This document shows positions 7,373 through 60,074 of a stretch of 64,000 bases of DNA, piece by piece. Within the stretch, counting starts at the first letter, position 1. Each line of letters starts with the position of its first letter. The position numbers were made by a program, and so were the translations under genes. This DNA comes from Cetorhinus maximus (taxonomy: Eukaryota), in the NCBI RefSeq assembly GCF_964194155.1, contig NC_135899.1, forward strand, positions 68,262,001 to 68,326,000, in the 5' to 3' direction. Under the pieces are notes generated by a model, which did no database searches, was not told the DNA's origin, and saw nothing but the letters and a program-made list of their open reading frames with translations.

Positions 7373-7593
7373 ACAATGTGAAAATCAAAAAATTAAAACT
7401 AAAATGAACAAGTATCACTATTTAAGCACGGAACCTCAATTCTTTTAAAACTCAGCACAAAAGTTGACTGTTTTCAACAGGCTTCACAGGAATTCCTACA
7501 TACTCAATATTAAGTGGGTGCAGATATCTCCGGGACATACAACGTTCCTCGGATTGCTGTTCCTGTTGCATTCTGAGATCCACACTCAGTGCC

Positions 7594-10003
7594 ATGCGCC
7601 GTCATATGAACACACTCGACCTCTCCCTCCAGCAGCACCGCCGCACCCTTTTTCAAAGCTGCGCGTGCCCCCAGTTTCATTTTATTCTTCGTCTCATCCG
7701 ATGCCTCAACAAGAAACTTTTTCTCTTTCTCTCAAGTGCTAAGGAACGCAAGCTCCAACAACTCATCGACACCAACACCCATCTGGGACCCTCCACCCCT
7801 GCCTGTACCTCTGTCCCTATCCCGTCTTTCAATCCCAGCCCTGGCCGTTTATTCACCATACCCCATGACCTTCCCCTCTCCGACACTGAACGTTCAGTGC
7901 TCAGCAAAGGACTTAGTTTCATACCCTTACGCCCTCATCTCAATGAATTTCGGGCTTGGCACGATGCTGAACTCTTCTTCCGCCGCCTTCGTCTCCGTGC
8001 TCACTTCTTTGGGCAGGAGTCCTCTCCCCGTTCAACGGATCCTTTTACCCACCTCCAATATTCTCCCTCCACCTGGACCCCTCCCTCTGGATTCTTACCT
8101 TCTCTTGATCTTTTCATTGAGAACTGTCGGTGTGACATTAGTCATCTCAATTTCTCTGCTCCTCTCACCCATTCTAACCTGTCTCTCTCTGAACTTACTG
8201 CACTCCGTTCTCTCAGGTCCAACCCTGACATTGTCATCAAACCCGCTGTTGTTGTCTGGTGCACTGACCTCTACCTCGCCTCCGCTGAGCGTCAACTCGC
8301 AGACACTTCCTCCTACCTCTCCCTGGACCATGACCCCACCACTGAACATCAAGCCATTGTTTCCAGGACTGTCACTGACCTCATCTCCTCTAGAGATCTT
8401 TCTTCCACAGCTTCCAACCTGATAGTCTCCCAACCTTGGACGGCCCTCTTCTACCTCCTACCCAAAATCCACAAACAGGACTGTCCCGGCAGACCGATCG
8501 TGTCGGCCTGTTCCTGCCCCACGGAACTCATTTCTCGCTATCTTGACTCCCTTCCCTCTCCCCTTGTCCAGTCCCTTCCCACCTACATCCGTGATTCCTC
8601 TGACACCTTACGTCACTTCAACAATTTCCAGTTCCCTGGCCTCAACCACCTCCTCTTCACCATGGATGTCCAATCTCTCTAGACCTCCATCCCCCACCGG
8701 GATGGTCTAAGGGCTCTCTGCTTCTTCATCAAAGAGAGGCCCGAACCATCCCCATCCACCACTACTCTCCTCCGTCTGGCTGAACTTGTTCTCACACTGA
8801 ACAATTTCTCCTTTAACTCCTCTCACTTCCTCCAAATAAAAGGTGTGGCTATGGGTACCCGCATGGGCTCCAGCTATGCCTGTCTCTTTATGGGGTACGT
8901 GGAACATTTCTTGTTCCAGTCCTACTCCGGCCCCCTCCCACAACTCTTTCTCCGGTACATCGATGATTACGTCGGTGCTGCTTCATGCTCTCGTCAGGAC
9001 CTGGAAAAATTTATGAATTTTGCTTCCAATCTCCACCCCTCCATCACTTTCACATGGTCCATCTCTCACACTTCCCTTCCCTTCCTTGACCTCTCTGTCA
9101 ATTTCTGGTGATAGACTGTCCACCAATATCCATTACAAGCCTACCGACTCCCACAGCTACCTCGACTACAGCTCCTCACACCCCGCTTCCTGTAAGGACT
9201 CCATCCCATTCTCTCAGTTCCTTCGCCTCTGTCGCATCTGTTCTGATGACGCTACTTTCAAAAACAGTTCCTCTGACATGTCCTCCTTCTTCCTTAACCG
9301 AGGTTTTCCACCCACGGTCGTTGACAGGGCCCTCAACCATGTCCGGCCTATCTCCCGCGCATCCGCCCTCACGCCTTCTCCTCCCTCCCAGAAACATGAT
9401 AGGGTCCCCCTTGTCCTCACTTATCACTCCAGCATTCAAAGGGCCATCCTCTGCCATTTCCGCCAACTCCAGCATGATGCCACCACCAAACACATCTTCC
9501 CTTCACCCCCCCCGGCGGCATTCCGTAGGGATCGTTCCCTTCGTGACACCCTGGTCCACTCCTCCATCACCCCCTACTCCTCCTCCCACGGCACCTCCCC
9601 ATGCAAACGCAGAAGATGCAACACCTGCCCCTTCACTTCCTCTCTCCTCACCGTCCAAGGGCCCAAACACTCCTTTCAAGTGAAGCAGCATTTCACTTCC
9701 CCCAACTTAGTCTACTGCATTCGTTGCTCCCAATGAGGTTTCCTCTACATTGGAGAGACCAAACGCAGACTGGGTGACTGCTTTGCAGAACATCTTCGGT
9801 CTGTCCGCAAGAATGACCCAGACCTCCCTGTCGCTTGCCATTTCAACACTCCACCCTGCTCTCATGCCTACATGTCTGTCCTTGGCTTGCTACATTGTTC
9901 CAGTGAAGCTCAACGCAAACTGGAGGAACAGCACCTCATCTTCTGACTAGGCACTTTACAGCCTTCCGGACTAAATATTGAGTTCAACAATTTTAGATCT
10001 TGA
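7594..10003 (+). pseudogene. Disrupted PLE ORF: reverse transcriptase + Cys-rich linker + C-terminal GIY-YIG endonuclease (Neptune-like layout)
   Basis: YLLPKIHK, PGRPIVS, FTMDVQSL*TSIP, QIKGVAMG..YACLFM, LRYIDD, PFLD..YKPTD, CKRRRCNTC, LVYCIRC..YIGET..EH..HFN..GLN; stops at about 8680, 9734 and 9944, frameshift near 9100. Confidence 0.93.
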
Positions 10004-10362
10004 AGTCTCTCCTCCATCCCCACCCCCTTCCCGTTTCTTCCCCCTCCTTTTTGTTTTTTCCAATAATTTATATAGATTTTTTCTTTTCCCACCTATTTCC
10101 ACTAATTTTAAATGTATTTCCACCATTGTTTATTTCTACCTTTTAGTATTCCCCCACCCCCACTAGAGCTATCTGTACCTCATCTGTCCTGTCTTATACT
10201 CTTAATTAGCACATTCCTTTAGATAATATCACCACCTTCAACACCTCTGTTCTTTTATCTGTGACAGCTTTTGGTTATCTCCTCCTATCACTGGCTGCTT
10301 GTCCCAACCAACCCTGCCCCCCCCAAACCAGCTTATATTTCACCCCTTTCCTAATTTTACTT

Positions 10363-10401
10363 AGTTCTGTTGAAGGGTCATGAGGACTCGAAACATCAAC
10401 T
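10363..10401 (+). ncRNA. Minimal type I hammerhead ribozyme-like motif (variant core) in PLE 3' repeat
   Basis: AGTT-CTGTTGA-A-GGGTC-atgag-GACTC-GAAA-CATC-AACT: stem I AGTT/AACT, stem II hairpin, GAAA; palindrome ACGT decayed to ACAT. Confidence 0.65.
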
Positions 10402-11154
10402 GTACTCTTCTCCGCCGATGCTGCCAGACCTGCTGAGTTTTTCCAGGTATTTCTGTTTCTGTTTTTATTATTATTAAGTGGGTGCATTCCACTTTACCTA
10501 TTGTTTGGTAGAATTGTCTGCTAACCTCGATGGAAGAGTACTTCAGCCAAGGATTGTTTCATTACTTTTGAAATCTATTGCTCATATTTGTGAATCATAG
10601 TTTTCGGGTAAGTTGTTCAATAACAAGCCAAATAATACTGAAATACTGAGTTAGAAGCAAGTTGATTAATATCCTATTTATAGACAATTTCACCTCCATA
10701 ACATTTTGCAAGAAAAGAATTTCCATTGCCGGGCTAAGGATTTATTTTATTTTTGGCAGTCCTGACATGGAATTAATTTGCTGATGACAATTACGAATTG
10801 ATTATTCCAAATTGCTCGTGGATGAATAATGAATGGTCAGAATTGATTTTGTACCAATATACACAGATATGAACCTACACTCTACACGCCAGTAAACCAT
10901 AATGACCCAGGATATTTTCTAAAACACATAATTTCTTGTGTTCCTTTCACTTGGAGCACCTATTATAGCCTAGCAAATAAATAAATGAGAAAACAGCTAC
11001 AATACAGGATGTAGGTTCACAAAACATGTAAAAGGTGCTGCAAAAACTGAATACCTGTTGAAATGCGACTGTAGTACTGGACTAAGCCCAGTATTTTTCA
11101 GATAAATGACAGCATTCATTTTACTAATGCAATTCAATAATACTAGGAAGACAG

Positions 11155-12588: not shown

Positions 12589-13005
12589 TGAGAACATAAG
12601 AAATAGGGGAGGTTGGGCACAGGCGCCATCGAACCTGCTCTGCCATTCAATAAGATCCTGACTGAACTTCTACATCAACTCCACTTTCCCACCATATCCC
12701 TGGGTTCCTCAAAAGTCTAAAAATCTGTTGATCTCAGCCTTGAACATACACAAAATATGAACACCCACAGCCCTCTGGGGTAGAGAATTCCAAAGGTTTA
12801 CAAACTCCTGAGTGAAGTTCCTGTTCATCTCTATTTTAAATGGCCAGCCCCTTAACTCTGAGACTACAACCCCTGGTTCTTGACTCTCCAGCCATGGAAA
12901 CAGCCTTTCAACAACTACTCAGTTAAGTCCTTTAAGAATTTAAAGTTTCAATGAGAACATCTCTCGTTGTTCTAAACTCCAGATATTTATAGACCCATTT
13001 TAATC
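12589..13005 (-). mobile_element. CR1-clade LINE 3' fragment
   Basis: agaacataagaaatagg tail and degenerate RT end. Confidence 0.75.
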
Positions 13006-13689
13006 AATGAGAGAAGTAAACAGTTCATGGAGCACAACTTGAGGAGGTTTAAAAATGCACCTACTTTACAGAAATAGAAATGTATAATAGTTTTCTAGCC
13101 GATATATTTAAGCATCATGCTTGCAAAATAATAAGCTTTATGTTGCAATTCTATTTTCTAGAAGTGACGAAAATATTCAAAAGGAATGAAACTTTACATA
13201 TCCTTATGTCAAATCAATGAAAATTAAATGTTTCCAAAATTGTGCGACAAAAATAGAACAAATGAAAAAGGTTCACATTTTAACAAACGGCAGTAAGTAA
13301 TGTCACCAATATTGGGCGGTGGCTTGACTGGGAGGGAAAATTTAAGGTATAAAAAGTGAGTATATTACCAGTTTAGGGAGTGGACCGCCATCTGCCATCC
13401 CTTACATCATAAGCATCATCTTGTGTTAACCTAAATCAATCCCCGCCAAAAAAAAATTGCGCATAATCGACAACAGACAACACAGAGCAAGGGAAACAAG
13501 GTGGTCTTGCAGCTACTGACAGAGCATGGAAACGGGGGGGGCAGCTATTCAATACATGATGGAAGACTTTTAACTGCAGCAACTGACATAGTTAAACCCA
13601 CTAGGGAGGGAGGGAGAATGAACCCCCCCCCCCCAAATCATCAGCTGACAGGCTTGAAAATACCAACAGCCACCCAGGCTTCAAGTCTC

Positions 13690-14375
13690 AGGAGGGAGGA
13701 AGCGGGCCGATCCGACAGACAAAAGAGCCGAGAAGCGTCACCTGGGGGGAACAATCCCCACTGGATCCCAGTCAGCCGAGACTGAGAGCCGGGGCCCCCG
13801 CCTGCGCGCCAAGCCGAAGCCCGAGCCAGCCCCGCTCGCCGCCTCCATTTTGCTCTTACCTCCGTACGCGGCTGCGTCTCCGACACAGACATAGCGGAGT
13901 AATTAATGCAAAACACTTGAAAAAGAGATTTTTTTTTTAAAAATGGCGTCAGTTCTGAAGTGCCGTTGGTGTCAGAAACTCAGAGTTTAAAAAAAAATTA
14001 CTTCATTCCAACCATTAAAGACGAAGCGGCTCCACTCGCCAACAGCGGAAAACCGACAAGCTCTCCAAATTTGACCTCCCCGCACAGCGCACGCGCCGCA
14101 ATCAGGGCCCCGCCCCAGCGCTCGGTGCTCCTTGATTGGTGCCGGCGAGATGGACCACGCCCCTTCTCTGCCATAAATGGCGAGGCAGCACTGCAGCCAC
14201 GCCCCCCCCCCCCCTGCGGCCCGGGAGGCACCGGGTCCCCACTCCAGGGTGATTGTAACAACGAAAGACTCCGCCCCTTTCCTGGGATGATTGACGTGTG
14301 CAGCGCGCCGGGCGTCAGCTGGCGCCTGCGATTGGTGCCTTTTTCCCTCTGCGCTGCGGCGGCAAATTTGAAATA
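13690..14375. promoter_or_regulatory. CpG-island promoter of CLSPN with cell-cycle motifs
   Basis: GC/CpG-rich; inverted CCAAT (GATTGG) near 14134 and 14330, GC box near 14108, YY1-like AAAATGGCG near 13940, E2F-like GCGGCAAA at 14359-14366 abutting CHR TTTGAA at 14367-14372. Confidence 0.75.
13860..13892 (-). CDS. CLSPN: Claspin coding exon 1 (MSVSETQPRTE)
   Basis: ATG at 13892, GAG|gtaaga donor, 33 nt phase 0, inside a CpG-rich island; short first coding exon as in tetrapod CLSPN. Confidence 0.8.
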
Positions 14376-15456
14376 GATAAAAGCAAAGATCTGCGGATGC
14401 TGGAAATCCAAAACAAAAACAAAAATACCTGGATAAACTCAGCAGGTCTGGCAGCATCGATGGAGAGGAATACAGTTAACGTTTCGAGTCCGAGTTCAAC
14501 AGAACTAATTAAAAATAGAGAAGGGGTGAAATATAAGCTGGTTTAAGGGGGGGGGGGGGGGGTTTGCGGGGCGGGGGTTGGGGCAAGAAGAGCTAGGTAG
14601 AGGGCCAGTGATAGGTGGAGATAACCAAAAGATGTCACAAACAAAAGGACAAAGAGGTGTTGAAGGTGGTGATATTATCTAAAGGATGTGCTAATTAAGG
14701 GTAGAAAGCAGGACAAGCAAGGTACAGATAGCTCTAGCGGGGGTGGGGGGAAGGAATCGAAAAGGGCTAAAAGGTAGAGATAAAACAATGGATGGAAATA
14801 CATTTAAAAATAATAGAAATAGGTGGGAAAAGAAAAATCTATATAAATTATTGGAAAAAACAAAGAGGGGGGAAATCGGAAAGGGGGTGGGGATGGAGGG
14901 TAGAATTCATGATCTAAAGTTGTTGAACTCAATATTAAGTCCGGAAGGCTGTAAAGTGCCTCGTCGGAAGATGAGGTGCTGTTCCTCCAGTTTGTGTTGA
15001 GCTTCACTGGAATAATGCAGCAAGCCAAGGATGGACAAGTGGGCATGAGAGCAGGGTGGAGTGTTGAAATGGCAAGCGGCAGGGAGGTCTGGGTAATGCT
15101 TGCAGACAGACCGAAGGTCATGAACTGTCTCCTCCATCCCCACCCCCTTTCCAATTTTCCCCCTCCTTTTTGTTTTATCCAATAATTTATATAGATTTTT
15201 CTTTTCCCACCTATTTCCATTATTTTTAAATGTATTTCCATCCATACCTTTTAGCCCTTTTTGATTCCTTCACCCCACCCCACCCCACCCCACCCCCACT
15301 AGGGCTATCTGTACCTTGCTTGTCCAGCTTTCTACCCTTAATTAGCACATTCCTTTAGATAATATCACCACCTTCAACACCTCTTTGTCCTTTTGTCTGT
15401 GACATCTTTTGGTTATCTCCACCTATAACTGGCCATCTACCTAACTCTTCTTGTCC

Positions 15457-15797
15457 CACCCTCCCCCCAACCCTCCCCCCAACCCTCCCCCCAACCCTCC
15501 CCCCAACCCTCCCCCCAACCCTCCCCCCAACCCTCCCCCCAACCCTCCCCCCAACCCTCCCCCCAACCCTCCCCCCAACCCTCCCCCCAACCCTCCCCCC
15601 AACCCTCCCCCCAACCCTCCCCCCAACCCTCCCCCCAACCCTCCCCCCAACCCTCCCCCCAACCCTCCCCCCAACCCTCCCCCCAACCCTCCCCCCAACC
15701 CTCCCCCCAACCCTCCCCCCAACCCTCCCCCCAACCCTCCCCCCAACCCTCCCCCCAACCCTCCCCCCAACCCTCCCCCCAACCCTCCCCCCAACCC
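15457..15797. repeat. Perfect 12-bp tandem repeat (AACCCTCCCCCC) x about 28; G-quadruplex-prone on the minus strand
   Basis: 27 identical units at 15469-15792 plus imperfect flanking units. Confidence 0.97.
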
Positions 15798-15857
15798 TCT
15801 CCCCCCTCCCCCCTCCTTTAAACCAGCTTATATTTCACCCCTTTTCTATTTTTAATG

Positions 15858-15896
15858 AGTTCTGTTGAAGAGTCATGCGGACTCGAAACGTCAACT
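15858..15896 (+). ncRNA. Minimal hammerhead-like motif (CUGUUGA core, GUC triplet)
   Basis: AGTT-CTGTTGA-A-GAGTC-atgcg-GACTC-GAAACGTC-AACT. Confidence 0.7.
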
Positions 15897-15961
15897 ATGC
15901 TCCTCTCCACCGATGCTGCCAGACCTGCTGAGTTTTTCCAGGTAAATTTGAAATAGACCTC

Positions 15962-16070
15962 TGTGCTGATGAAGAGTCACACGGACTCGAAACGTTAACT
16001 CTATCTTCCTCTCCACAGATGCTGTCAGACCTGCTGAGTTTTTCCAGCAATTTCTGTGTTTGTGTTTGTG
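15962..16070 (+). mobile_element. ~110-bp PLE 3' terminal insert carrying a hammerhead-like motif with canonical CTGATGA core
   Basis: CTGATGA-A-GAGTC-acacg-GACTC-GAAACGTTAAC at 15966-15999; 15-bp TSD TTTGAAATAGACCTC at 15947-15961 and 16071-16085. Confidence 0.85.
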
Positions 16071-16249
16071 TTTGAAATAGACCTCCTCTTTTTGACCTGG
16101 TGCTGAGTGACACACAGTTGCCCCATTGGCACATAACAGAAACATAATAGCAACATGGCAAATGCCCTTGCAAGGTACCATTAATATAATAAATAAACAA
16201 TACATTCAAATATATAAACGTGTCCAATACAGCAACAGAAAAAAATCAT

Positions 16250-16970
16250 TGAAACATTTGCACCATAGGTTAGCAAGGCCATAAAAAAAACAAACCAAGC
16301 ACTAAGCTTTATTTCTGGAGAGGTAGAATTGAAAAGTAAGTAAGTTATGCTAAACCTATACCAGACCTTGGTGAGTACTTCATGCAGTGCTAGTCGCCCT
16401 ATTATGAAAAGGATATAGAGGGTGCAGAGAGGATTTACAAAGATGATACCAGAAATGTATGGGCATACACATCAGGAAAGGATTAACAGGCTGGATCTCT
16501 TCTCTCGTGAAAAAGGGGTGACCTAATAGAGGTATTTAAAGTTATGGAAGATTTTGATACAGAAAGAATGTTTCCTCTTGTGGGGAAGAGCATAACCAGA
16601 GGCCATCAATTTAAGATAGTCACAAAAAATCTGATAGGGAATTCAGGAAAACATAGCTCTTTACCCGAAGAGTGGTAAAAATGTGGAACTCACAACCACA
16701 GGGAGTGGTTGAAGCAAATAGCATAGATGCATTTAAGGAGAAACTAGACAAGCATGTGAAGGAGGAGGGATTTGGTGGTGACAATGGCAGATTTGGATGA
16801 GGAAATAGAAAAAGAAAATGCTGCAAAAACTCAGCAGGTATGGTAGCATCTGTGGAAACAGAAACAGAGTTAATGTTGAGTCCAAAAGGTGGGAAAAGAC
16901 TCAAGTGGAACAAAAACATGGACAGATTGGGTCAAATTTCTGTGCCATATGTCCTATATAATCCTATGCA
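16250..16970 (+). mobile_element. CR1-clade LINE 3' fragment with a nested PLE-end fragment (about 16803-16883, minus)
   Basis: Degenerate RT end (GDLIEVFK..RVVKMWNS); interrupted by aaaatgctgcaaaaactcagcagg..gagttaatgttgagtcc. Confidence 0.8.
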
Positions 16971-17124
16971 AGGTTTTCACCTTCCTTCACTCAACTGCTG
17001 CTCCCTGTAGACTACAGGTCTCCGTACCTTTCAATAAACTCACTGATCCTGGTTGCAGCTGAGTCCATTTGATATAGAAACACAAATGAGGAAGAGGGGG
17101 GTGGTGACTGCTGAAAATTTTTGC

Positions 17125-17650
17125 ACGCATATAACTTGCTCAGCTGTGACTTTCTGGTAGTACTCTCCCCTCAGTGAGCAGATTGAAGGTTCAAGGCCAA
17201 CCTTTGAGGCTGCAGCTTGTAATCTAGCCTGACATTCAGTGCAATACATTAAAGCTCCCATGGTACCATGTTGAAGAGCAGGGGCATTCTCCCCAGTGCC
17301 CTAGCCAATATTTTTCCCTCAGTCAACATCTGTTAAGCTGTTAAACAAACAGAAAATGCTGGAATTACTCAGGTCAGGCAGCATTAGACTTGCAATGTGA
17401 ACTGAAACAGAACTCTCTACAGGTGCTGCCTTGCTTGTTGAGTTCTTCCTGTATTCTCAGTTTTAGATTTCCAGTATCCACATTATTTTGATTTTGTATT
17501 GGTAAAATTGATGATCTGGTTATTATTACATTGCTGTGTATAATTAGCCAGCACTTTTGTTATATTACAACACTCCAAAAAGTACTTTGTTAGCTGTAGA
17601 ATGCTTTGGACATTCAGAGGTTGTGAAAGTCACTGAATAAATTCACGTGG
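17125..17650 (+). mobile_element. Deu-domain-type SINE with nested PLE-derived hairpin (about 17345-17500)
   Basis: Reverse complement of the family at 44322 and 52868; the insert has inverted arms acagaaaatgctgg..ctcag / gctgcc..gagtt..tagatttccag. Confidence 0.6.
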
Positions 17651-18151
17651 CTCTGAGCATTTCAGCCCATTATGCCTGCATGGGCTCTTTGAAAGAGCAT
17701 TCATGCTTCGTCCCACATCTGTGCTTCTTGATCATACCCTCCAAGTTCCTCATCCTCATTTTATATAACCTATTCCTCTTAATTCAAAGTTGCTTAACCT
17801 AAACTGAAAATTTATCACAGGATTACACTTTGAGTTCTAAATTTATCAATCTGAAACTTAACTCTTTCTATTTTAATTCGCACCTTGCTGTCTTTTTAAG
17901 GTTTTTTAAATTAAAATAAACTTTGTATTACTAGTAGATCTTACAATGGTATCAACCATCAGCTAGATTGAATTAAGCATTACACCAATAATAGTATCTT
18001 ACCTTATTAGAATTATACCTTAAACCATAATTTACAATGAATCACCATTTGCTTTACAATTATGGGAACAAAGCAGCATAAGCAAGCAGCAGCTAATTTA
18101 TAAACTGCTAATCACCATCCATCCTGACAATAGGAGCACAACGGTAGTAAA

Positions 18152-18925
18152 CAAAAGACTTGTATTTATATATCACCATTCACAACCTCAGGATTTTAAA
18201 AAATTTCCCGAGATGTGGGCATCACTGGCTAGGCCAGCATTTATTGCCCATCCCCAATTGCCCTTGTTCAGAGGGTATTTAGGAGTCAACCACATTACGA
18301 TGGGTCTGGAGTCACGTGTAGGCCAGACCAGGTAAGAACAGCAGATATCCTTCCTTAAAGGACATCAGTGAACCAGATGAGCTTTTACGACAATGGCTTC
18401 ATGCTCATCATCAGACTTTTAATTCCAGGTTTTTATTGAATTCAAATTTCACCATCTACCATGGTGGGATTCCCAGAGAATTACCCTGGGTCTCTGGAAT
18501 ACCAGTCCAGTGACAATACCACAATGCCACTGCCTTCCCTAACAACCAACTAAATAATTTTGAAGTGGAGTTACTGTTGTAAAGAAGGGAATATAGCAGC
18601 AATGCATGCATAGCTAAACTCCCACAAATAGCAATGTGATAATGACCATTTAATGTGTTTAAGATATTAATTGAGGGATGAATATTGGCCAGGGCACCAG
18701 GGATAACTCCCCTGCTCTTTTTTGAAGTGGTGCCATAGGAACTTATATATCCACCTGAGAGAAAACAGGGCTTTGGCTTAACGTCTCATCTGAAAGACCA
18801 TCTAAGGCCACGCAGCACTCCCTCAGTAATGCATCAGAGTGTTCGTCTCAATTTTAATGGTCAAGTCTCTAGAATGGGACTTGAACCCAAAGCCCACTGG
18901 CTCAGAGACAGGAATGATGCCAACT
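18152..18925 (-). mobile_element. Deu-domain-type SINE interrupted by a younger tRNA-derived SINE (about 18200-18535)
   Basis: aaagacttgtatttatata..cacaacctcagga breaks at about 18195 and resumes at about 18540; the insert is the reverse complement of 56511-56900. Confidence 0.75.
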
Positions 18926-19715
18926 ACCAAATTACATTCCTAACTGAGAAGCAGATCACTGAAGTTACATTTTTAAAATTTGTTGTCCGTCTGTGACTAA
19001 CATTGGTAAGGCAGAATTTACTACCCATCTCTAATTGCCCCAAGAACATTAAGGGTCAACTAAATAGTATGGAAGTGGAGCCACATGAAAGCCAGGATGA
19101 TGGTTCACTTCTCTGAAGGACATTAGTGAACAAGTTGAGTTATGACAGTACAAGAATTTCATGGCCATTTCAGGTCAGTTTTATTTGAAATGTCTTACTC
19201 TTAAAAATCCCCCTTTAATTTGTTTAACAATAAGTCTAAGCTCCCTGGGGCTCACAACTCCAGCAGCCTTCAAGCAGCCATTACAATACTTCATTGAATA
19301 GGTTGGTATCTATCTTAGTGTTTATCATAACTTTTTGAAGTGTCACATGCAGAAAGTGTGGATCAGAGGGCAAAACTTTCTTTTGATATTGAGAAAGATA
19401 CTGAGACAATAAATGAGAGAGAAAGTAAATGAGAGGCAGAGGAAACAATGGCCATACAGAACAGACATAGGAAAGGAAAACCTTATACCAAGAGAAAGAA
19501 ACTCAAACACAGGCATAAAGCTGGCAAGAAAAGGGATACCAAAACCAAGAAAGACAAAGACAAACTGAAAGGCAAATTAATTTGGGAATGGAAAACAAAT
19601 TGGGAGTTATAGGAAAGGAGATATTTTTTACCATGAGTTATGGCACAGGACTAATTTCTGTTAAGAAGCAAATACTGTTAGAATGAATTATGCATCACTG
19701 CAGTAGCTCCACAGG

Positions 19716-20685
19716 GTCCTCAGCCCAACTATCTTCAGTTGTTTCATCAATGACCTTCCTTCCATTATAAGGTCAGAAGTGGGGATGTTCGCTGATGATT
19801 CACAATGTTCAGCACCATTCATGACTCCTCAGATACTGAAGCAGTCCATGTCAAAACGCAGCAAAATCTAGGCAATATCCAGGCTTGGGCTGACAAATGG
19901 CAAGTAACATTCGTGCCACACAAGTGCCAGGCAATGACCATCTCCAACAAGAGAGAAGCCAACCATCACCCCTTGACGTTCAATGTCATTACCATCACTG
20001 AATCCCCCACTATCAACATCCTGGGGGTTACCATTAACCAGAAACTGAACTGGACTAGCCATATAAATAATGGGGCTACAAGAGCAGGTCAGAGGCTAGG
20101 AATCCTGCGACGAGTAACTCACCTCCCGACTTCCCAAAGCCTGTCCACCATCTACAAGGCACAAGTCAGTAGTGTGATGGAATACTTTCCACTTGCCTGG
20201 ATGAGTGCAGCTCCAACAACACTCAAGAAGCTTGACACCACTCAGGGCAATGCAGCCTGCTTGACTGACGATTGACATCCCTTCCACAAACATTCACTCC
20301 CTCCACCACCAAGGAACAGTGGCAGCAGCGCCTACTATCTACAAGATGCACTGCAGAAACTCACCAAGCCTCCTTAGGCATTACCTTCCAAATCCACAGC
20401 CGCTACCATATAGAAGGACAAGGGCAGCAGATACAAAGGAACACCACCAGCTAGAAGTTCGCTCCAAGCCACTCACCATCATGGCTTGGAAATATATCGC
20501 CATTACTCCACTGTCGCTGGGTCAAAATCCTGGAACTCCCTCCCTAACACTATTGTGGGTGTATCTACATCAAATAGACTGCAGCTGTTCAAGAAGGCAG
20601 GTCACCACCATCTTCTCAAGTGCAATTAGGGATGGGCAATAAATGCTGGCTGAGCTAGCGACGGCACATCCCGTAAAATGAGTTT
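19716..20685 (+). mobile_element. Non-LTR LINE 3' part (CR1/L2 superclade, lineage distinct from the other CR1 copies)
   Basis: PQG..PTIFSCFINDLP..MFADD..QAWADKWQVTF..KCQ..ILGVTI..LNWTSHI..IYKAQV..MEY; 3' tail gggatgggcaataaatgctggc. Confidence 0.88.
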
Positions 20686-21307
20686 TAAAATTGCACACAT
20701 TTACTTTAAAAATAAGTTACTTTAATTCTGCTCAATTGGCAGAATAGATTAAAAAATATCTGGCACTGCAGAAAGAGCCAGTCTATTTTGATATGATGTG
20801 CAGGGTATAATAAATACATCAAATGGACATTGGCTTGAGACAAATAATTAAATAATAATTAAGACAAATAATAACTTTCCTCATCTTTATTCCTGCTCCC
20901 ATTCTTTACATTAACAGCAAAAGGCCAGTGGCAATATGTAGCCCTTAAAAGATTAAGTAAATGGAAGTGCATTATCAAAGCCACTTTGCCACTTGTTAAG
21001 TGTTAAAACGATTATCCACAATCTTACTAATTTATCTGGAATGCTGACATTATAGAATTTAAATTAGGAAAGAACTGTTTTTGCATTAAAATAAGCCAAT
21101 TTAGAGGAGCTTAAATTCCAGTGTAATTATATGGGCACCAATCATATAAGAACTTCTCGACATCAGCTAATGCATGATATAACATAACAATTTTCTAAAT
21201 TCAGATCTATTCATCAGTATTGCAGATTAGTATATAAATGTTGTGGTGGGGATTGAGGATGGTTTATAAATTTCAAGTGCATGTTTCAGTTATCAAGAAC
21301 TGCAGTA

Positions 21308-22990
21308 CATAGAAATATAGAAAATAGCAGATCATTCGGCCCTTCGAGCCTGCTCCACCATTCAATATGATCATGGCCGATCCTCTACCTCAATGCCATA
21401 CTCCCACTCTCACCCGATACCCCTTGATGCCTTTAGAGTCTATAAGTCTATTTCCTTCTTAAATATATTCAGTGACTTGGCCCCCACTGCCTTCAGTGGT
21501 AGAGAATTCCACAGGTTCACCACCCTGAGTAAAGACAATTCTCCTCATCTGAGTCCTAAATGGCCTACCCTGTATCCTGTGACAGTGACCCCTTGTTTTA
21601 GAACTCCCCCCAGCCAGAGGAAACATCATCCCTGCATCCATTCTGTCTCACCCTGTCAAATTTTACGCACTTCAATGGGATCCCCTCTCATTCATCTAAT
21701 CTCCAGTGAATACAGGCCGAGGATAGATCAATAGAGAAGCAGTGGCAGGCATTTAAGGGGATATTTCAGAGTATTCAGAATAAGTACATTCTTACTATTA
21801 AGAAAAATTCTAAGGGGAGGACCCACCATCCTTGGTTAACTAAACATGTTAAGGAAAGCATCAAACTTAAGGAAAAAGCATACAAACTCTACAAAGATGA
21901 GTGGCATGGATCGAGAATTGATTAGCAGACAGGAAACAGAGTAGGAATAAATGCGTCTTTTTCGGAGTGGCAGGCAGTGACTAGTGGGGTACCATAGGGA
22001 TCAATGCTTGGGCCCCAGCTATTCACGATATATATCAATGATTTGGGTGAGGGAATCAAATATTTCCAAGTTTGCTGATGACACAAAACTTGATGGGAGT
22101 GTCAGCGATGAGAAGGGTGTTAAGAGGCTTTAAGGCGAGTTAGAAAGGGTCAGAGAGTGGGTAAATACATGGCAGATGCAGTATATCATGGATAAGTGTG
22201 AAGTTATCCACTTTGGTAGAAAAGACAGAATGGCAGAGTATTATTTAAATGGTGATAGATTGAAAAATGTTGATGTACAAAGGGACCAGAGTGTCCTTGT
22301 ACACCAATCACTGAAAGCAAGCATGCAGGTGCAGCAAGCAGTTAAGGAGGCAAAAGTAGGCTTTCATTGCGAGAAGACTTGAGTACAGGAGCAAGGATGT
22401 CTTACTGCAGCTGTACAGGGCCTTGGTGAGACCACACCTGGAGTTGTGTGCAGTTTTGGTCTCCTTACCTAAGAAAGGATATACTTGTCATAGAGGGAGT
22501 GCAGTGAAGGCTCACCAGGCTGATTCCTGGGATGGCAGGATTGTCATATGAGGAAAGATTGGGACGACTAGGCCTGTATTCACTGGAGTTTAGAAGAATG
22601 GGAGGGGATCTCATTGAAACGTATAAAATTCTGACAGGGATGGACAGACTGGATGCAGGAATATTTCCTCTGGCGGGGGGGTGGGTGGAATCTAGAGCAA
22701 GGAGTCACAGTCTCAGGATGAGGGGTAGGCCATTTAGGACCGAGATGAGGAGAAACCTTTCATGCAGAGGGTGGTGAACCTGTGGAATTCTCGACCACAG
22801 AGGGCTATGGGGGCCAAGTCACTGAAGGAAATAGATAAGATTTCTGGACTCTAAAGGCGTATTCTAAAGGGGTATGGGGAGAGAGCGGGAGTATGGTGTT
22901 GAGATAGAGGATTAGCCATGATCATACTGAGTGGCAGAGCAGGCTCAAAGGGCCGAATGACCTACTCCTGCTCCTATTTTCTATGTTTCA
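21308..22990. mobile_element. Two CR1 pieces head-to-head: minus 3' end (21308-21718) and internally deleted plus copy (21720-22990)
   Basis: VTSGVP.GS.LGP, SKFADDTKL, DKCEVIHFG, LSYEERLGRLGLYSLEFRRM.GDLIETYKI; both outer ends carry the (ctatttt/ctatgtt) tail. Confidence 0.88.
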
Positions 22991-23339
22991 AAATCTATAA
23001 AATTGCAGCAGTAGATGAGCTGCAAATGAAAGTGATTTTCTTTTCCTGCTTTTTATTACTGCCATGTTGATTTTTTTTTTGTCAGCATCAGGTTGAGGGT
23101 ACTATTAAGAACTGAACACCAATTTCAAGCATCCATCACACACTCCTAGGAAATGACAAAATGCTCTGGCTATAGCCAAAAATGACTTCTTCTCTGCCCC
23201 AATGCTTCTAATTTTAGAAGAGCACTGATGAGTCAGTGGTATTTCCACTTCTCACACCATCCATTTCAAAGGTCTTAGTGACATCGTCAATTTAGACTTG
23301 AAGAGTGGCCATTTTGGTGAGATACTAAAAGATCAAAAG

Positions 23340-24400
23340 CAACAACAGCTTTAATATAAAGCCTTTACATAAAAAAAAATCCCGTGATGTTTCAAAGGGG
23401 TGTCAGGAAGTAAAATTGAACACAGAGCCAGATAAGATGATAGATATTAAGGCAGATGGCCAAACGTTTGGTCAAAGAGATAGGTTTTAGGGATGGTTTT
23501 AAAGGAGGAAAAAAAAGGCAGAGAAGTTTAGGGAGGGAACTCAAGAGCTAATGGCTTAAGTAACAAAAGGCATAACCAGCAATGGTGGAGCAATGAAAAA
23601 TCAGGAAAGCTTAAGAGGCCAGAATTAGATCAATTCATTTATCTCAGAGTTGTGGGGCTAGAGGAGATCGGGAGGGGTGAGACAAGAGAGGGATTTGAAA
23701 AAAGGGATGAGAATTTTAAAAATCGAGGTGCTGATCAATGAGAAATAGGAGGGGCCACCAGAGGCAACAACACAGAATGGGAAAAGAAGCCACTGGAAGT
23801 GATACTCTGGCAATGATTAGATAGATAAGAATGGAACTAGATGAGAGCAGTCCCACCCAGCTGGATGACAGTGGTGAAGGGTTGGAGGAGGATGGTGTAG
23901 ACAATCCTGTCAGAGGCTGCAGACAGGTCGAGAAGGATGGAGTTAGTTTACTTTCATCACAATCACATTGGACATAATTTGTGACTTCAGTAAAAACAGT
24001 TCCCATACTGTGGCAGGTGCAGGAACTTGATTGGAAGGATTCAAACATGGAGTTCCAGGAAAGATGGGCACAAATTTGGGAGGCGCTGTTCAAGGATGTC
24101 GGAGAGAAAAAGGAGATTGGGTTCGCTAAGATGGTAGGGTAAGAGTTGGTTTAAGGAGAAAGGTGATGACATCAATTTTAAAGGGGAGAGAGGGACAGTA
24201 CCTGAAGAGTGACGAACATTAACAATGTGAGCTAAATCAGGCACCAGGAAGAGAAGTCGGACAGTCAATGGTGGGAATAGGGTTGAGGGAACAGGAGGTG
24301 GGCTGATTGATAAAGTGAGCACGGAGAAGACACGATGAGAAATAAGAGAAAAGCTAGAGAAAGAGGGGAGTTCAGGATTGGGGCATGAGGGAAAAGCAAC
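23340..24400 (-). mobile_element. L2-like LINE 3' fragment
   Basis: Reverse strand: ..SMFESFQSSS..HSMGTVFTEVTN..CDCD..L.LS.AF-like RT remnants; 3' end shared with 2985-3430. Confidence 0.7.
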
Positions 24401-26685
24401 TGGGGAACTATTGCAGTGTCACTGATTTTGTTAGAAAAGAGCAAAAGGGATAAGCTAAAATTGGGGCAAAAATGTCTCTTGACCAGAATGCCTTGGTTTT
24501 TTCCCCAATCATTATTTTCAAACTAAAAAGGTGGAAATGGCAACCTTCCCCAAGGGCTTTACCTATTTACATATAGTATTTGAGCGAACTCTGACAAAGG
24601 CTAGATTGCCCCAAGAACGATTAGCCACCAATTTTTACTCCTTTCATTCCGACTGGAAAACCTTCAGTCACTGACTCCTTTTTATGACAAAAAAAAAAGG
24701 AACTCACCCTGAGAAAAATTTAGGTGTAGTACCATGTAAAATTAATTTTCTCCGTATCTCCATACTACTCCATTAAAAAAGTCCTTTGTACCTATTTCCT
24801 GTTAACTTAAAGCAGAAGTAAAGATTTAGCTCACTGCACTCCTGAAACTAAAAAGAAAATTGGGAGGGGTAAAAAAAAAAAGTGAACAAGCATCCCTTGA
24901 GTACATAACTCATATCTTTGTCACAACTGTGTGTGCTGATCTGTAATCAAGAATCTGGCATCTAAATAGTACAGCATACTGCAAACTGAAGGAAGATTTT
25001 TAAAGAAGCTACAGCTTGTTCAGTGCTATTGTGAATTGAGATCCTTAAACTTGGACAATTTTTAAAAGGATTAAGGCTCCCAATATAAAGTTTTCATTAG
25101 TCTCACGATGATGTGGCTTGATTGAAAACCACCTTGGAAAATTGGGAGATCCTTGGCAGTATACTAAAGATGTGGGTGTACAAAACAAGCAATTCATCAA
25201 AATTTATATTTTTCCATCTTTCACAAAACTGTGTTGTGTTTAAAGGTTTTTAAAAAAAAGTATAGAACAGCAAGCTAAAAAATGATTAGTATCCGCGGGG
25301 AAGAATCAATGCTGTTGCAAAAACGCGGCGGGGCTCAATTACAGGCATCCTCTGCCTCCACTTGGAGTTAAAAATGCAGCGTGGGTTAATGTTGTTAAGG
25401 CACTGAGAAAAAATAATATTAAAAATAGTATTGTTACCAGAAGATTTATTCCTCACCCAAAAATAAAACATTCAATTGGCATATTGTAGATTTTATGTCT
25501 GTAAATAGTTTAACTTGAGGAAGCACAGAAAAATACATGAAAATAATCTGTAATATGAATGAAGAAAAAAATGTGTTACTCATATATGTCCTTTAACAGA
25601 GGCAGTGTACAAGTGCTTTTACTCGACTTTACACATAGCATTTAAAAAAAAAAAATCAGCTTATGTCACACACTTTCTATTTAGACGAATTAGTAATCAC
25701 ACTTAGACAATTAGAATAAAAATTGGGTCTTAAATAAAGAAGGGAAAAAGGACAAACAGACCTACAATTATATGCCATGTCAGCACATCACAGAAACATT
25801 CCAAAGTGTTTAATAGATAATGAATTAAATGGAACACCAGACATGGATTTAAAAGAAATAAGCCACATTGAGGTGCGGTTTGGATGTCAGTGCTATTGAG
25901 TCACAGTATCATACTCACATCAGGAACCCATTCTAACTGGAACAGTTTCACAAGGTGGCAAAACCCATGAATATCTTGACTGAGTTTCACAGCAGTTGAC
26001 TTGCAAAGATTTGTTGGTGTAATTTGGAAAGCAACGTTTCAAATGTTCAAACCTAATCTTTATTTTGTCATATCTGGACACACTTTTCAGGGGAGGGGAG
26101 ATAAATACATTAGTTATATATATGTTGTAAAGTTGCAACATTACTTCCCTATACAAATCTACATTTTTCATCATCTCATCAAACTTTGTCCAGCAGCATA
26201 ATGTTAAGCATAAGCTAATTCGATGCTGAAAAATCAAAGATGATTTTATTTATTTATTTCTGATCGATAATTCTTGCCAACAATTTGTTTTTTATAGAAT
26301 GATGCTGATTACAAAACATCTTCTAGAGGTGGGCTGGATTTTAATATCTCTCACAAACAAGGTTTTTGCAACCAAGGGCGAAAGTGAGTGAATGTGAGAG
26401 AGAGAAGGCAAACAAGTGATTTCCTGGTTGCAAGAATACACAGGGATGCAGTTGCTGCATTTCCCAAGTAAATCAAGTTATCAAAATAACTGAGTGGTCC
26501 AACTTTAATCCACTAATGGTAAATGCTTCAAAATCTAAAATTAAGCAAAATATTAACTGGTTTAAAAATCTCTTCATCATTAAAACTGTTCACCTCCTAG
26601 AAACACTACCAAGCTCCGGACCTCTTCAGATCATTGTGCTGGTGGCTTTACTTGGCCATTTTGGGTGGATGAGGTTGGCTAGTCA

Positions 26686-27122
26686 CTATTTTTGACAGAG
26701 ACACTGCTCCAAAGCTGCCATTCCATACAGGTTTGCTTTCTCCTCACCATTATTCAGCAATATAATGTCTTTACATGGTTTGCTGTTCTTTGCCAGTTCA
26801 GTTAAAACACACTGGAAGGCAGCAATAAGGTCAAACTCCACAGAAACAGGTGAAGCCTGACTTAGCAAATCAAAAATGTCACTCAACCATTCTGATTCAA
26901 TTACACTTTGTGGTAGCCATGGCAGTAAGGGTACACAACTACCGAAAGCCTGCATTCCCAGGAACCAAAGCTCTGAGATTTGATCCCAAGCTTCTTGGTA
27001 TCTCTCGGTCACCAGAATCTGTGTTCGGTCAACAACCTCCTCCAGCTGAGTTGTATGTGCTTTTGACAGAAAGTGAATTGTCCCTCGGAAAAAGCCCCTG
27101 GATACTGTGGTTCCTTCTAACA
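26686..27122 (-). CDS. NCDN: Neurochondrin last coding exon
   Basis: tttcag|TGTTAG; ..YQEAWDQISELWFLGMQAFGSCVPLLPWL..MAALEQCLCQK*, matching the neurochondrin C-terminus. Confidence 0.95.
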
Positions 27123-27849: not shown

Positions 27850-28798
27850 CTGCAACAACAGATAAAAAGGACAAGGGTAAGCAAAATTTTTTTAAAAGGC
27901 GAGAAAGAAAAAAACCCTTTAGAATATCCATTCTTCCCCCCACCCCACTCCCTAGTTAGGAAATATCAATCAGACCAAAAATCATTGTGAAACCCTTTCA
28001 ACAACTTAATTCTTTTGTATTACCTGTCCTTTAATTGAGAAAGAAATCAATAAATTGCCAGCCTGTAATCAGCAGTACATTTGTGAAATGGATGCTGGAT
28101 GTTAGATATAGAAAATGTGTCTGAACATTTGGTGAGTTGGAATATTGAGTAATAAGTTTTAATAGTGAATTTCAAAACTGTCCATATTCAGCTCTTTGAT
28201 AACTCAGCAGATTAACACAGCGAGTAGCCGAATCATATAGCCTAGGAAGAACTCAGGATTGATCCTTGACCTCAGGCAAGAATCTGCCAGCCTTACCTGG
28301 ACGAACCTACACATGACTCCAGTCCTATACTAATTGAATCTTATTGCACATAGGGCAAATAGGTTGGACAATAGAACTTGGGGGAAAAAATGGGTTCAGC
28401 TGTAGTGTCCCACAATTGAATTATCTGCCAGCAGTCACTGTTAAAACTTATGCATGAGCAATGATAATTTGAACACAGTACTACATCCCAACAAAAAGTC
28501 ATGCCTTCTGGAGAAGTGGAAAGGATATATTGGTGGGAATTATTTAAGAATGGTAACAGTGAAACAGACCGCACCAGCCCTGGGGTACTCATTTACAAAC
28601 TCTCTATCGATAACCAGTATCATAGGCAGAGCATTAATGGTTAGTGTAATTAAAACAAAATGATGTCACTATACTAACAAGTCTGTCTCTTGCATTGTCT
28701 CAGCATTAACTCAAAGAAGTTGATTTTCCTGGCTTTTTTCTGCCCCGACACTGCATACCCAAAGAATGCTGTGCCTGCCCAGCCCTAGGAGCACTGCT

Positions 28799-29085
28799 AT
28801 AAAAACAAAAAACTGCAGATGCTTCACTTGAAAGGAGTGTTTGGGCCCTTGGACAGTGAGGAGAGAGGAAGTGAAGGGGCAGGTGTTGCAGCTTCTACTG
28901 GCTGCTTGTCCCTACCCACCCCCCCACCCCCCCCCCTGCTTAAACCAGCTTATATTTCACCCCTTTCCTATTTTTACTTAGTTCTGTTGAAGGGTCATGA
29001 GGACTCGAAACGTCAACTGTGCTCTCCTCCGCCGATGCTGCCAGACCTGCTGAGTTTTTCCAGGTATTTCTGTTTCTGGTTTTGT
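28799..29085. mobile_element. Short rearranged PLE insertion in an NCDN intron: inverted tail + inverted endonuclease fragment + direct 3' repeat
   Basis: TSD CTAGGAGCACTGCT (28785-28798) / CTAGAAGCACTGCT (29086-29099); 28820-28897 is the reverse complement of PLE 9610-9690; remainder matches 10290-10460. Confidence 0.88.
28980..29018 (+). ncRNA. Minimal hammerhead-like motif (CUGUUGA core, GUC triplet)
   Basis: AGTT-CTGTTGA-A-GGGTC-atgag-GACTC-GAAACGTC-AACT. Confidence 0.7.
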
Positions 29086-29261
29086 CTAGAAGCACTGCTG
29101 TTGCCCATCCTGGAACCTGGTCCAGAGTCTGGACCTTTTGCCAGATAAAATGGGAAAAATGTAAACGCGGCTGCAGCAAATGTGGAGCTCAGCAAACACA
29201 ATTTGATCTACTCTAGCACTAAACTGAAAAACAACCAATTTGCCGCAGCTTATGTTTTATA

Positions 29262-56900: not shown

Positions 56901-58517
56901 AAAAAGTGCCTTTACTTACCCAAAAACTATCTCAACAGCCATTCTTCCTCCGGTATTCCATTCTCTCGTCACCACAAGCTCTCTCTTCCCCAGTTCCCAG
57001 ATGTTGTTTCCCCCTTCAATGTTCACTTAATTTATAGAGGCAGTGTGTCTTTTTGACCTTCACCCTCCAGTTCACAGGAGCCAACCTCTCTACAAATTCA
57101 CAGAGACACTTCACCTCTGCCTGATTATGTTTGTTGATGTGAAGAAATTAATGAACCATTTTCCTCACAATTCATAGCGGTTTTAAGTAAAGAAAACATT
57201 CTTTCTATTTTGAGCTTGTTAAAATGAAACAAAAGATCCTTGTCTTGTGCAATTGATACCAATCCCTTCTGTCAAATGACTGAAATACAACCACAGCATA
57301 AAAACTAAAGAATGCCTCTCTCATGTATGGTGGTGTAGTGGTTATGGTACTGAACTTAAAACCTTGAGGTCGTGAGTTCAAATGCCACCATGAGCAATTT
57401 AAAGTTGAATTCAGTAAATATGGTGATTTGTGGACTAGCGTGTTACTGTGTCAATGGCGATATTCTCTCTACTTCCATATCTATGGTAACTTTGAAATAT
57501 GTTTAATATATAGGTTTTTTGTTTCTACTGGTGGCTCACATCCGCACATTATCTTGATATTGGTGCACATAACAATATTCACTCTGCAAATGGATGGTAA
57601 AAATTGGAGAGAACACAGATCTCTCCAAATCTTCTATATATGCCAGACTTATGTGCTGTAGTTCTCTTTGCATAAGATTTTGCATAACTCCTTCCTGTGT
57701 TTCGTAACAATGTTCCTACCCCATATGGTTAGCTTCAGTGTTTACCTCACAAACAGACATAAAAACTAATTGACTAAAGGGTGGAGGATCACCCAGCTCC
57801 ACTTTAAAGAGGCATTGTTTCAAGTGCTTTCTCCATATGACAATGAATTACATTCAAACTAATATTCCAATCTTGTACAAAAAATGAGGAAGCTTATGTA
57901 TCATATTGGTTATTCAGCTCCCAGACTTGTTGAACAGGATGTTGGGTTGAATTTTACTCAGATAGTTCATGCAGCCAGGTATTGGGCAGTCTTAAACAAG
58001 TTCTTGATGGGTGTGGGCGTATGTCTATAATTTTGCAAGTAATTAGCACTTAGGTCAGAAGCCTTGCGCTGGTGCTGTACAGAAAAGATATTGAATCTGC
58101 AGTGCTTGGAATCTGATCCTGAAAAAGTGCAGGCAAAATTATTCCTATTTGAGTTTATATTTCCAATTTGTCCTATTTGAATTTTGCTGGGATTGGAGGC
58201 TTGGAAAGGACTATTCAGTGCAATTGCCTTATTGATGATTGAATACTAAATTGGAATACCAAGCGCTCATGGATTTTAAACTTGAGACATGGAGGCTGAG
58301 GTTCCATGGTGTGCACCTATTGCAAGTCTTGAAGTGAAAACCTTGCATACACCTGCAGAAAGTGAGGCATCTTGATTGATAGGTAGAGGAGTGCTTTAAT
58401 CCAGAGTGCACAATGTCAAAACTGCCTAAAGGCTTTGACCTTGAGTATAAAAACTCATTGGGGGGGGTAGGGGGGTGATTTTTTTTTTTAAAGAGGAGAT
58501 TGGTAATTTATTTGATC

Positions 58518-58700
58518 TAAAAACAGAAAATGCTGCAAAAACTCAGCAGGTCTGGTGGAATCTGTGGAGAGAGAAGCAGAGTTAACATTTTGAGTCTGTG
58601 TGACTCTTCTTCTCCACAGATTCTGCCTGGCCTGTTGAGTTTTTCAGCGTTTTCTGTTTTTATTTCAGATTTCCAGCATTTGCAGTATTTTGCTTTTAAC
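58518..58700. mobile_element. ~180-bp hairpin element made of two head-to-head PLE 3' termini
   Basis: aaaacagaaaatgctgcaaaaactcagcagg..tctgtggaga pairs with tctccacaga..cctgttgagtttttcagcgttttctgtttt; loop holds a hammerhead stem II remnant (gagtc..gactc). Confidence 0.8.
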
Positions 58701-60074
58701 TTATTTGATCTGCAACGTCGTGGCACATTACTACCAGCACGGTTGCTGAACAGCTATACAAATTTTGAGGAAAATGAACTTATGGCAGATAAGGTGCATC
58801 CAAGGTCCCTTAATGATAAGAAGAACATTTTTGCAACTCTGGCACATTCTTTTAGAAATCACTGGGACTAGTGAAGGGCAGACGTTATTCTATTTTCAGA
58901 GAAGTAGCAGCAGTGATTTGGGGAACTACACACCAGTAAATCTGTCATCTGATGTGAGTAAAGTTATGCCTTTATTAAAGACAAGATCATGGAGTGTCTG
59001 GATCGAAACAAAATAATAAATGATGGCCATTTTAGCTTGACGGTTTTCTTTTTAGGGTTGGGCAAAGGAGCTTGATAGGGGCAAGACAGTGTGGGGAGAT
59101 GGGGGTGGTGTATTTGGATTCCAGTAAAGCCTTTCATTCAGTTCATCTGGAAAGGCTGGTGCTGAAAATGAAAGTGGAAACCCGTAGAAATATTTTACAA
59201 TGGATATATAATTAGTTAACCAATAGAACCCAGAGGGTTGTGATACAGGGATTGTAATTGGCGTTGGAGGATGTTACCAGTGGCTTTCCACTGGGGTCTG
59301 CTTCTGATTTTTCACTCCAGATCATTCATAAAGTTATGAAGCGAAGTCACAAGGCAAAGTGGCTAAGCCTTCAGGTGGTGCAAAGCTAATAAAGGTGGTT
59401 GACTACAAATGCAAATTAGATTTGTTTTTGAATTAATACTTTGGAATACAGCATATGAGTAATTGAGATAAAATATATGCTAAATGTAGCATGGTTGGGA
59501 GGAACAGGTGACTATTATTCTTGGACCTATGGTTCTCCCTGGCGCTTGCCTCATGTCTTGGTCTGTTGAAGGTAAACTGATAGGTGTTGATTGCTGTTAT
59601 TAGTCAATAAATGCATTATCATGTGACTACCAAAATGGTAGAAGGTGAATCTTGGTCTTTTTTCTTATTCTAATGTCTACCCAATTTAAAGAATGATGCT
59701 TGACTGGCTAGGATTCAAACGCTCTTGTTAATGAAAGTTTAATAGCTAGTTACATATCTATGTTGCCATTCTGAGCAACGTGAGGAATTTGCCAGTAATG
59801 TTTGACTACTAAACTCAAGGTTATTGTTACTGGGAAGCAGAAAAGGTACAATTGCTGTGGTAAAGCGAGGTTCGGACTCCAATTTCCAAACGTCCTGTTT
59901 TTGCCTTTTATTTTTAACCCTTGGCCCACACAAATGCTCTTTTTCCCATTCCTGACAGGAGGGGTGGGGGGTGCAGTGTGGTATAGTCATAAATTGAAAT
60001 GAACACTCAACAATAGGGTGACCAGATTTTCCAAAGCCAAAAACGGGAAACATTGAAAAGCCTTAGGAAGGCAG

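Follow-up and report, generated by a model that had tools for sequence, protein, structure and literature searches.

Overlapping target site duplications of two PLE insertions at the distal edge of the CLSPN promoter island in Cetorhinus maximus

Introduction

Among EN+ Penelope-like elements (PLEs), a CX2-5CxxC linker upstream of GIY-YIG is the signature of the Neptune and Nematis types in the accessible part of Craig et al. 2021 (PMC8557442). Repeated use of one insertion site is described for several other elements in the available portions of three papers: double insertion at a preserved target in Drosophila (McGurk and Barbash 2018, PMC5932611), overlapping target site duplications (TSDs) of independent CanSINE insertions (PMC4084570), and sites in NF1 that were used twice (PMC3219598). 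In a literature search that covered few subscription papers, we found no double insertion with overlapping TSDs by a PLE and no target sites of shark PLEs.

The locus analyzed here also touches cell-cycle promoters. According to the portions of Mueller et al. 2014 (PMC4176359) and Engeland 2022 (PMC9090780) that were available, CLSPN is among the listed p53-p21-RB targets, functional CHRs are conserved and sit on or very near the transcription start site, and they work in either orientation (45% are reversed) and can act without a CDE; an upstream CCAAT box is suggested to set direction. We analyzed 64,000 nucleotides of Cetorhinus maximus (hereafter, the window; NC_135899.1, positions 68,262,001 to 68,326,000, forward strand), in which two PLE insertions share a target beside CLSPN. 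The explanation that we favor, and consider likely as a whole, is that two subfamilies of one Neptune-type PLE retrotransposed here on two separate and old occasions, with a mild site bias and neutral consequences.

Results

The gene next to the insertions is CLSPN, as the initial annotation had proposed, given that an exon at 4.4–4.8 kb is 93% identical to claspin of Carcharodon carcharias. Its first coding exon (13860–13892, minus strand; ATG at 13892, gene running leftward) was located with tblastn, which placed residues 1–12 of Carcharodon claspin at 13892–13857. The claspin exon had no Pfam match, and phmmer against PDB did not recover claspin. The neighbors are neurochondrin (NCDN, minus strand, 26.7–35.6 kb) and a KIAA0319-type gene (plus strand, 60.8 kb). 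The arrangement in the window, CLSPN(-), NCDN(-), KIAA0319-type(+), presumably differs in order and orientation from that of the human block.

A CpG island that represents the CLSPN promoter region spans 13700–14363 (CpG o/e 0.66–1.33 in 200-bp windows starting at 13700–14200) and contains GC boxes (14115, 14276), CCAAT boxes (14139, 14335), and CRE-like sites. Both insertions lie at its distal edge. Within 14260–14375, a GC box, a CRE-like site, a CCAAT box, and a CDE/CHR motif are ordered so that they face away from CLSPN, which makes this segment a candidate divergent or relic promoter. No Pfam family scored above cut-off (two were sub-threshold) in the 89 stop-free frames of at least 45 aa within 16086–26700 that were searched for a protein-coding gene on the outward strand, where short exons or a non-coding RNA are still possible.

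Both repeat pairs at this locus are exact, in agreement with the overlapping TSDs described initially. The two copies of TSD1 (14364–14377 and 15944–15957) are identical at 14/14 positions, or over 17 bp if one mismatch is allowed, and those of TSD2 (15947–15961 and 16071–16085) at 15/15 positions. All copies are on the plus strand, and the right copy of TSD1 overlaps the left copy of TSD2 in an 18-bp middle target copy (15944–15961). On the left side, TSD1 can be placed only to within 1 nt, and TSD2 only to within 4 nt (microhomology with the 3' repeat of the element). In a TSD search around the nine family units of the window, TSD1 scored 14 and TSD2 scored 15, values of at least 13 being reached by 0/300 random position pairs.

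The shared string is host target sequence, not element. An 11-mer common to both TSDs occurs three times in the 64 kb, every time at this site, and it is absent from all other family copies, contrary to the possibility raised in the initial annotation that the string belongs to the element consensus. Contig depth in a Cetorhinus maximus run falls from ~2.5 million in bin 16042–16073 to 13.9 in bin 16074–16105; the family contigs stop at TSD2, and their loose ends run on into the family tail, not into the target string. Because a 256-nt contig of the Cetorhinus maximus run matches 16032–16287 with zero differences, the right junction is no assembly error. For the left junction, an exact 22-nt scan of metagenome contigs gave no match. 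The hexamer TTTGAA is indeed now present in three target copies, but this tripling means little, as 109 occurrences (52 + 57) were counted across the window.

Insertion 1 (14378–15943) is PLE sequence flanked by a TSD, as first described, although it is a two-armed inverted unit and not one simple copy. It forms a head-to-head fold-back of a putative Neptune-type PLE with a tail on one arm only, and the arms are joined near 15115 with an overlap of ~2 nt. Arm A (14378–15116, minus strand) is a 5'-truncated PLE 3' end that aligns at 83.6% to a long copy at 9794–10465 and comprises the end of the GIY-YIG ORF, the 3' region, a hammerhead with a 6-nt deletion, and a ~35-nt tail beside the left TSD. 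Arm B (15115–15943, plus strand), identified as the inverted partner by inverted repeats and alignment, has no tail and stops short of the usual 3' end. Only arm B carries a 12-bp tandem array (15458–15804, plus strand; 28.9 copies by TRF), which has grown out of the C-rich linker of the family as near-identical 12-mers and reflects either recent slippage or an assembly artefact.

Insertion 2 (15962–16070, plus strand) is a 109-bp PLE end that belongs to another subfamily based on alignment and tree. It starts 4 nt ahead of the hammerhead core, lacks a tail, and ends in a short hexamer repeat. It differs from arm A by 14.8% (12/81) and from arm B by 13.8% (12/87), whereas the arms of insertion 1 differ from each other at 27 of 437 columns (6.2%). 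In a tree of eight rows and 113 columns, the 7.5-kb and 28.8-kb copies and both arms form one group (97/94), outside of which insertion 2 falls. The arms were not resolved as sisters in this tree, and eight differences between them have both states in other copies versus four shared private states; insertion 1 may thus derive from two templates.

An HMM census of the window found 12 element ends, corresponding to nine units of this very common shark retrotransposon. Classification of the family was based on a long broken copy in CLSPN intron 1 (7524–10468, plus strand; 15/15 TSD). Including its TSDs (7508–10486), this copy is 2.9 kb long, 5'-truncated, flanked by a perfect 15-bp TSD, and interrupted by several stops and frameshifts; a 14-nt stretch that overlaps its left TSD matches, possibly by chance, the endonuclease region of the element read in reverse complement. 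Read by eye, the long copy has YIDD (RT) in one frame and, in the next frame, VY..C..C..YIG, two later histidines, and the ORF end. It also has a C-x4-C-x2-C linker and the GIY-YIG C-terminus that is carried by arm A. Pfam returned no family for four PLE pieces, so that the assignment of RT and GIY-YIG rests on motifs. By these motifs, the family is a predicted EN+ PLE of Neptune/Nematis type, and the label "Neptune-type" rests on the linker together with the host range.

Five of the nine units have TSDs of 13–15 matching bases that scored 11–15, one has a decayed TSD, and three have none (null median 2, maximum 11, n=300). Apart from the two insertions studied here, TSDs were found for 4/7 units (15, 14, and 15 bp, and a decayed one of 11 bp). 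Inverted pieces are also present in the units at 17.3, 28.8, and 58.5 kb. The unit at 28785–29099, inside NCDN, is a composite fold-back of three segments laid down in one event, in the order TSD, inverted tail-like piece (~20–25 nt), inverted ORF piece (97% to 9611–9687), plus-strand end, and TSD. The unit at 58504–58711 is a 180-bp fold-back of two hammerhead-region ends with a one-sided tail and a 15-bp TSD with one mismatch; its arms differ by ~24% over 46 columns.

A minimal hammerhead core, hairpin, and GAAA were recognized by eye in arm B and insertion 2, and helix II folds in arm B. Rfam reported no hammerhead over 13000–18000 and two miRNA matches at chance level. In 4/4 copies of the insertion 1 subfamily (15866–15872, 10371–10377, and 28988–28994, approximate positions), the hammerhead core CTGATGA is replaced by CTGTTGA, and this subfamily has possibly propagated an impaired ribozyme.

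The proposal of two independent PLE insertions held up. Three target copies are present, implying two rounds of duplication, the inserted elements are of different subfamilies, and insertion 2 is shared with a relative. A promoter-side query recovered the species of the window and two relatives (B and C) that share ~0.2 of words; the contig comparison across four runs covered 15850–16800. Two runs of relative B, from two studies, each yielded a 317-nt contig over 16028–16353 (21 other letters, 11 gap letters) that bridges the 3' end of insertion 2, TSD2, and the unique flank. Relative B carries insertion 2, since just 11 gap letters were seen, five of them placed elsewhere, against the 18-nt gap required of an allele that had insertion 1 alone. 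The right copy of TSD2 in B differs at 2/15 positions (16078, 16083).

A single complex integration, in which template switching laid down all three segments and re-copied the target, seems very improbable to us. Such an event would accord with the perfection of both TSD pairs, the overlapping age estimates, and the frequently composite nature of PLE insertions, yet it requires that the two nick pairs differ in register and that RNAs from subfamilies 14–15% apart took part. Jumps between templates in TPRT are not known to place, as a rule, an intact target copy between the joined segments.

Divergence of the flank between the window species and relative B is 21/316, ~6.6% (about 7%). Insertion 2 predates this ~6.6% split and is hence old; because B has it, insertion 2 probably came before insertion 1. 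This order is not proven, as the divergence of the arms (27/437) and that of the flank (21/316) do not differ (Fisher P=0.88). If the arms derive from one template, insertion 1 would be about as old as the split, and it would be younger if they derive from two. In both relatives, ~40,000–65,000 family contigs per run mask the state of insertion 1. For relative C (one run), depth was 0 at 16106–16169 and no contig among those listed crosses the junction, some differences being uncounted. The search for empty or singly filled alleles that had been suggested was thus carried out in part: none was seen, and B carries insertion 2. The ancestral empty site is reconstructed, not observed.

Having separate events at one target raises the question of site choice. 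One rival reading is self-homing, in which a PLE ribonucleoprotein re-cuts beside the end of an existing copy: insertion 1 would have been drawn by the hammerhead start of insertion 2 at 4–8 nt, or insertion 2 would have landed 3 nt past the 3' end of arm B. The new nicks do lie within ~20 nt of an element end. Nevertheless, the elements come from two subfamilies, cutting took place in host target DNA and not inside the element, and none of the seven other units adjoins another unit across a short target spacer, so we regard self-homing as improbable, with an outside chance of being right.

The hotspot suggested by the initial annotation was borne out only as a weak local excess. Not counting inserted DNA, four of the nine units lie within 1.3 kb beyond the edge of the CpG island (post hoc P about 0.005). 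Nine units in 64 kb give P about 0.005 per window for two of them lying within 4 bp, but an unbiased process would yield ~90 pairs of this kind per Gb (40–158 for 6–12 units), and the locus was picked out of a large scan. Because of this P value in one window and the clustering of 4/9 units, pure chance may understate the site bias. A true promoter hotspot, caused by germ-line open chromatin at E2F/DREAM-bound island edges or by a preference for the CHR sequence, could draw on the same clustering, on both nick pairs straddling the CHR, and on the promoter preference followed by P-element dimers (accessible part of PMC5932611). Against it, 0/12 element-end matches lie near the second island (40–41.3 kb), ~40–160 pairs within 4 bp per Gb need no bias, and TTTGAA is present at 0/4 other target sites with a recognizable TSD in the window, a result that also leaves the suggested endonuclease preference for the CHR unsupported. 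We therefore give a promoter hotspot little credence. What fits is that the site was mildly favored by its accessibility and that insertions within the promoter were lost; CHR targeting does not fit. A preference for ATT at the joined edges was unsupported (4/9 versus a background of 0.24, P=0.14).

The sequence GGCGG + 4 nt + TTTGAA shows the CDE/CHR arrangement, as had been noted, and shares bases with a canonical E2F site. The motif (14358–14372, plus strand; putative function) is intact and is the sole CDE-4-CHR match in the window, with a probability of 0.013 under a Markov null within the island (post hoc). The overlapping E2F site (minus strand, 14366–14359) is one of two canonical E2F sites. 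The motif lies 475 bp from the CLSPN ATG, with three upstream ATGs in between, and may be functional. Whatever its role, both insertions left it intact.

We saw no sign of the regulatory effect that had been suggested, given that the promoter-side motif is untouched and that the new TTTGAA copies (15947, 16071) have no CDE and lie in CpG-poor DNA outside the island, 2055 and 2179 bp from the ATG. Distance is a stronger argument than the missing CDE, because CHRs can act without one. TTTGAA is unchanged in the right TSD of relative B, which is not evidence of function because this is expected in 61–68% of cases without constraint.

Discussion

The favored history of two separate retrotranspositions would begin with a GIY-YIG endonuclease that nicks the two strands 14–15 bp apart and so produces a TSD. 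For insertion 2, cDNA synthesis would have been primed by the bottom-strand end only and aborted after ~110 nt. For insertion 1, the element 3' ends at both target edges suggest that both DNA ends were extended and that the cDNAs were joined head to head. Consistent with this, the available portion of PMC11167929 describes a Poseidon protein that cleaves and extends each of the two strands, favors AT-rich DNA, and initiates at two sites bracketing the tail; self-priming is another published proposal for such PLE inversions. Because a TSD keeps the target sequence intact, a further cut could follow, here 3–4 nt away.

GC content is 66% over 14264–14363 and only 28% in the target. The target is where AT-rich sequence starts, at the distal edge of the GC-rich promoter island, and was probably somewhat easier to cut. 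Insertions deeper in the promoter island were probably removed by selection. The E2F/CDE-CHR motif retains its place on the promoter side, and the extra TTTGAA copies are likely inert.

The double hit is real but mostly ordinary, a new instance of known behaviors. Its value is that of a clean fossil of PLE mechanics, with a fixed stagger of 14–15 bp, element 3' ends at both target edges, a one-sided tail, and a target that survived to be re-cut, and the double insertion can be used as a phylogenetic marker in these sharks. How PLEs choose their targets in vivo is poorly defined, and the locus would gain weight if a genome census found them returning to their own ends or to the edges of promoters. 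It would also do so if a hairpin transcript were driven by the outward-facing cell-cycle motif. A bolder idea, a long shot in our judgment, is that shark Neptune-type PLEs re-use cut sites non-randomly, being drawn either to the ends of earlier elements or to open, AT-rich edges of cell-cycle promoter islands. At CLSPN, they would have reached the start of an outward-facing promoter with GC box, CRE, CCAAT, and CDE/CHR, which would now drive a cell-cycle-timed fold-back RNA through arms A and B. If so, this RNA, with 94% complementarity over 437 aligned columns, could supply a small-RNA pathway that silences the family.

Comparison with known systems

The following comparisons refer to the accessible portions of the cited papers. 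The closest system is that of EN+ PLEs of the Neptune/Nematis type (Craig et al. 2021, PMC8557442; Arkhipova et al. 2013, PMC3846280), with which the locus has in common 5'-truncated copies with a head-to-head inverted partner, a 30–40-nt tail at one end (arm A of insertion 1 and the 58.5-kb unit), a TSD around the whole unit, and the CX2-5CxxC linker ahead of GIY-YIG. It differs in that the TSDs are 14–15 bp, compared to 8–10 bp in the rotifer examples, and in that we saw no microsatellite at the target, which is shared by a second copy.

The putative ribozymes resemble the minimal hammerheads of metazoan PLEs (Cervera and de la Pena 2014, PMC4209133), sharing the core, helix II hairpin, GAAA, palindromic two-pair helix III, and short helix I by eye in arm B and insertion 2. 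In contrast, arm A is missing part of helix II, insertion 2 is missing the usual 5' strand of helix I, and the insertion 1 subfamily has a changed core base. Described CDE/CHR promoters (Mueller et al. 2014, PMC4176359; Engeland 2022, PMC9090780) match the motif in TTTGAA, a CDE 4 nt upstream, and CCAAT further upstream, except that the CCAAT-then-CHR order here points away from CLSPN.

The reported reuse of insertion sites (PMC5932611, PMC4084570, PMC3219598) parallels our locus in the target copy between two elements and in independent events on the same few bases. Those cases concern P, hobo, jockey, SINE, and L1/Alu elements and are mostly polymorphic or in separate lineages, whereas here two PLE subfamilies used nicks shifted by 3–4 nt on one chromosome.
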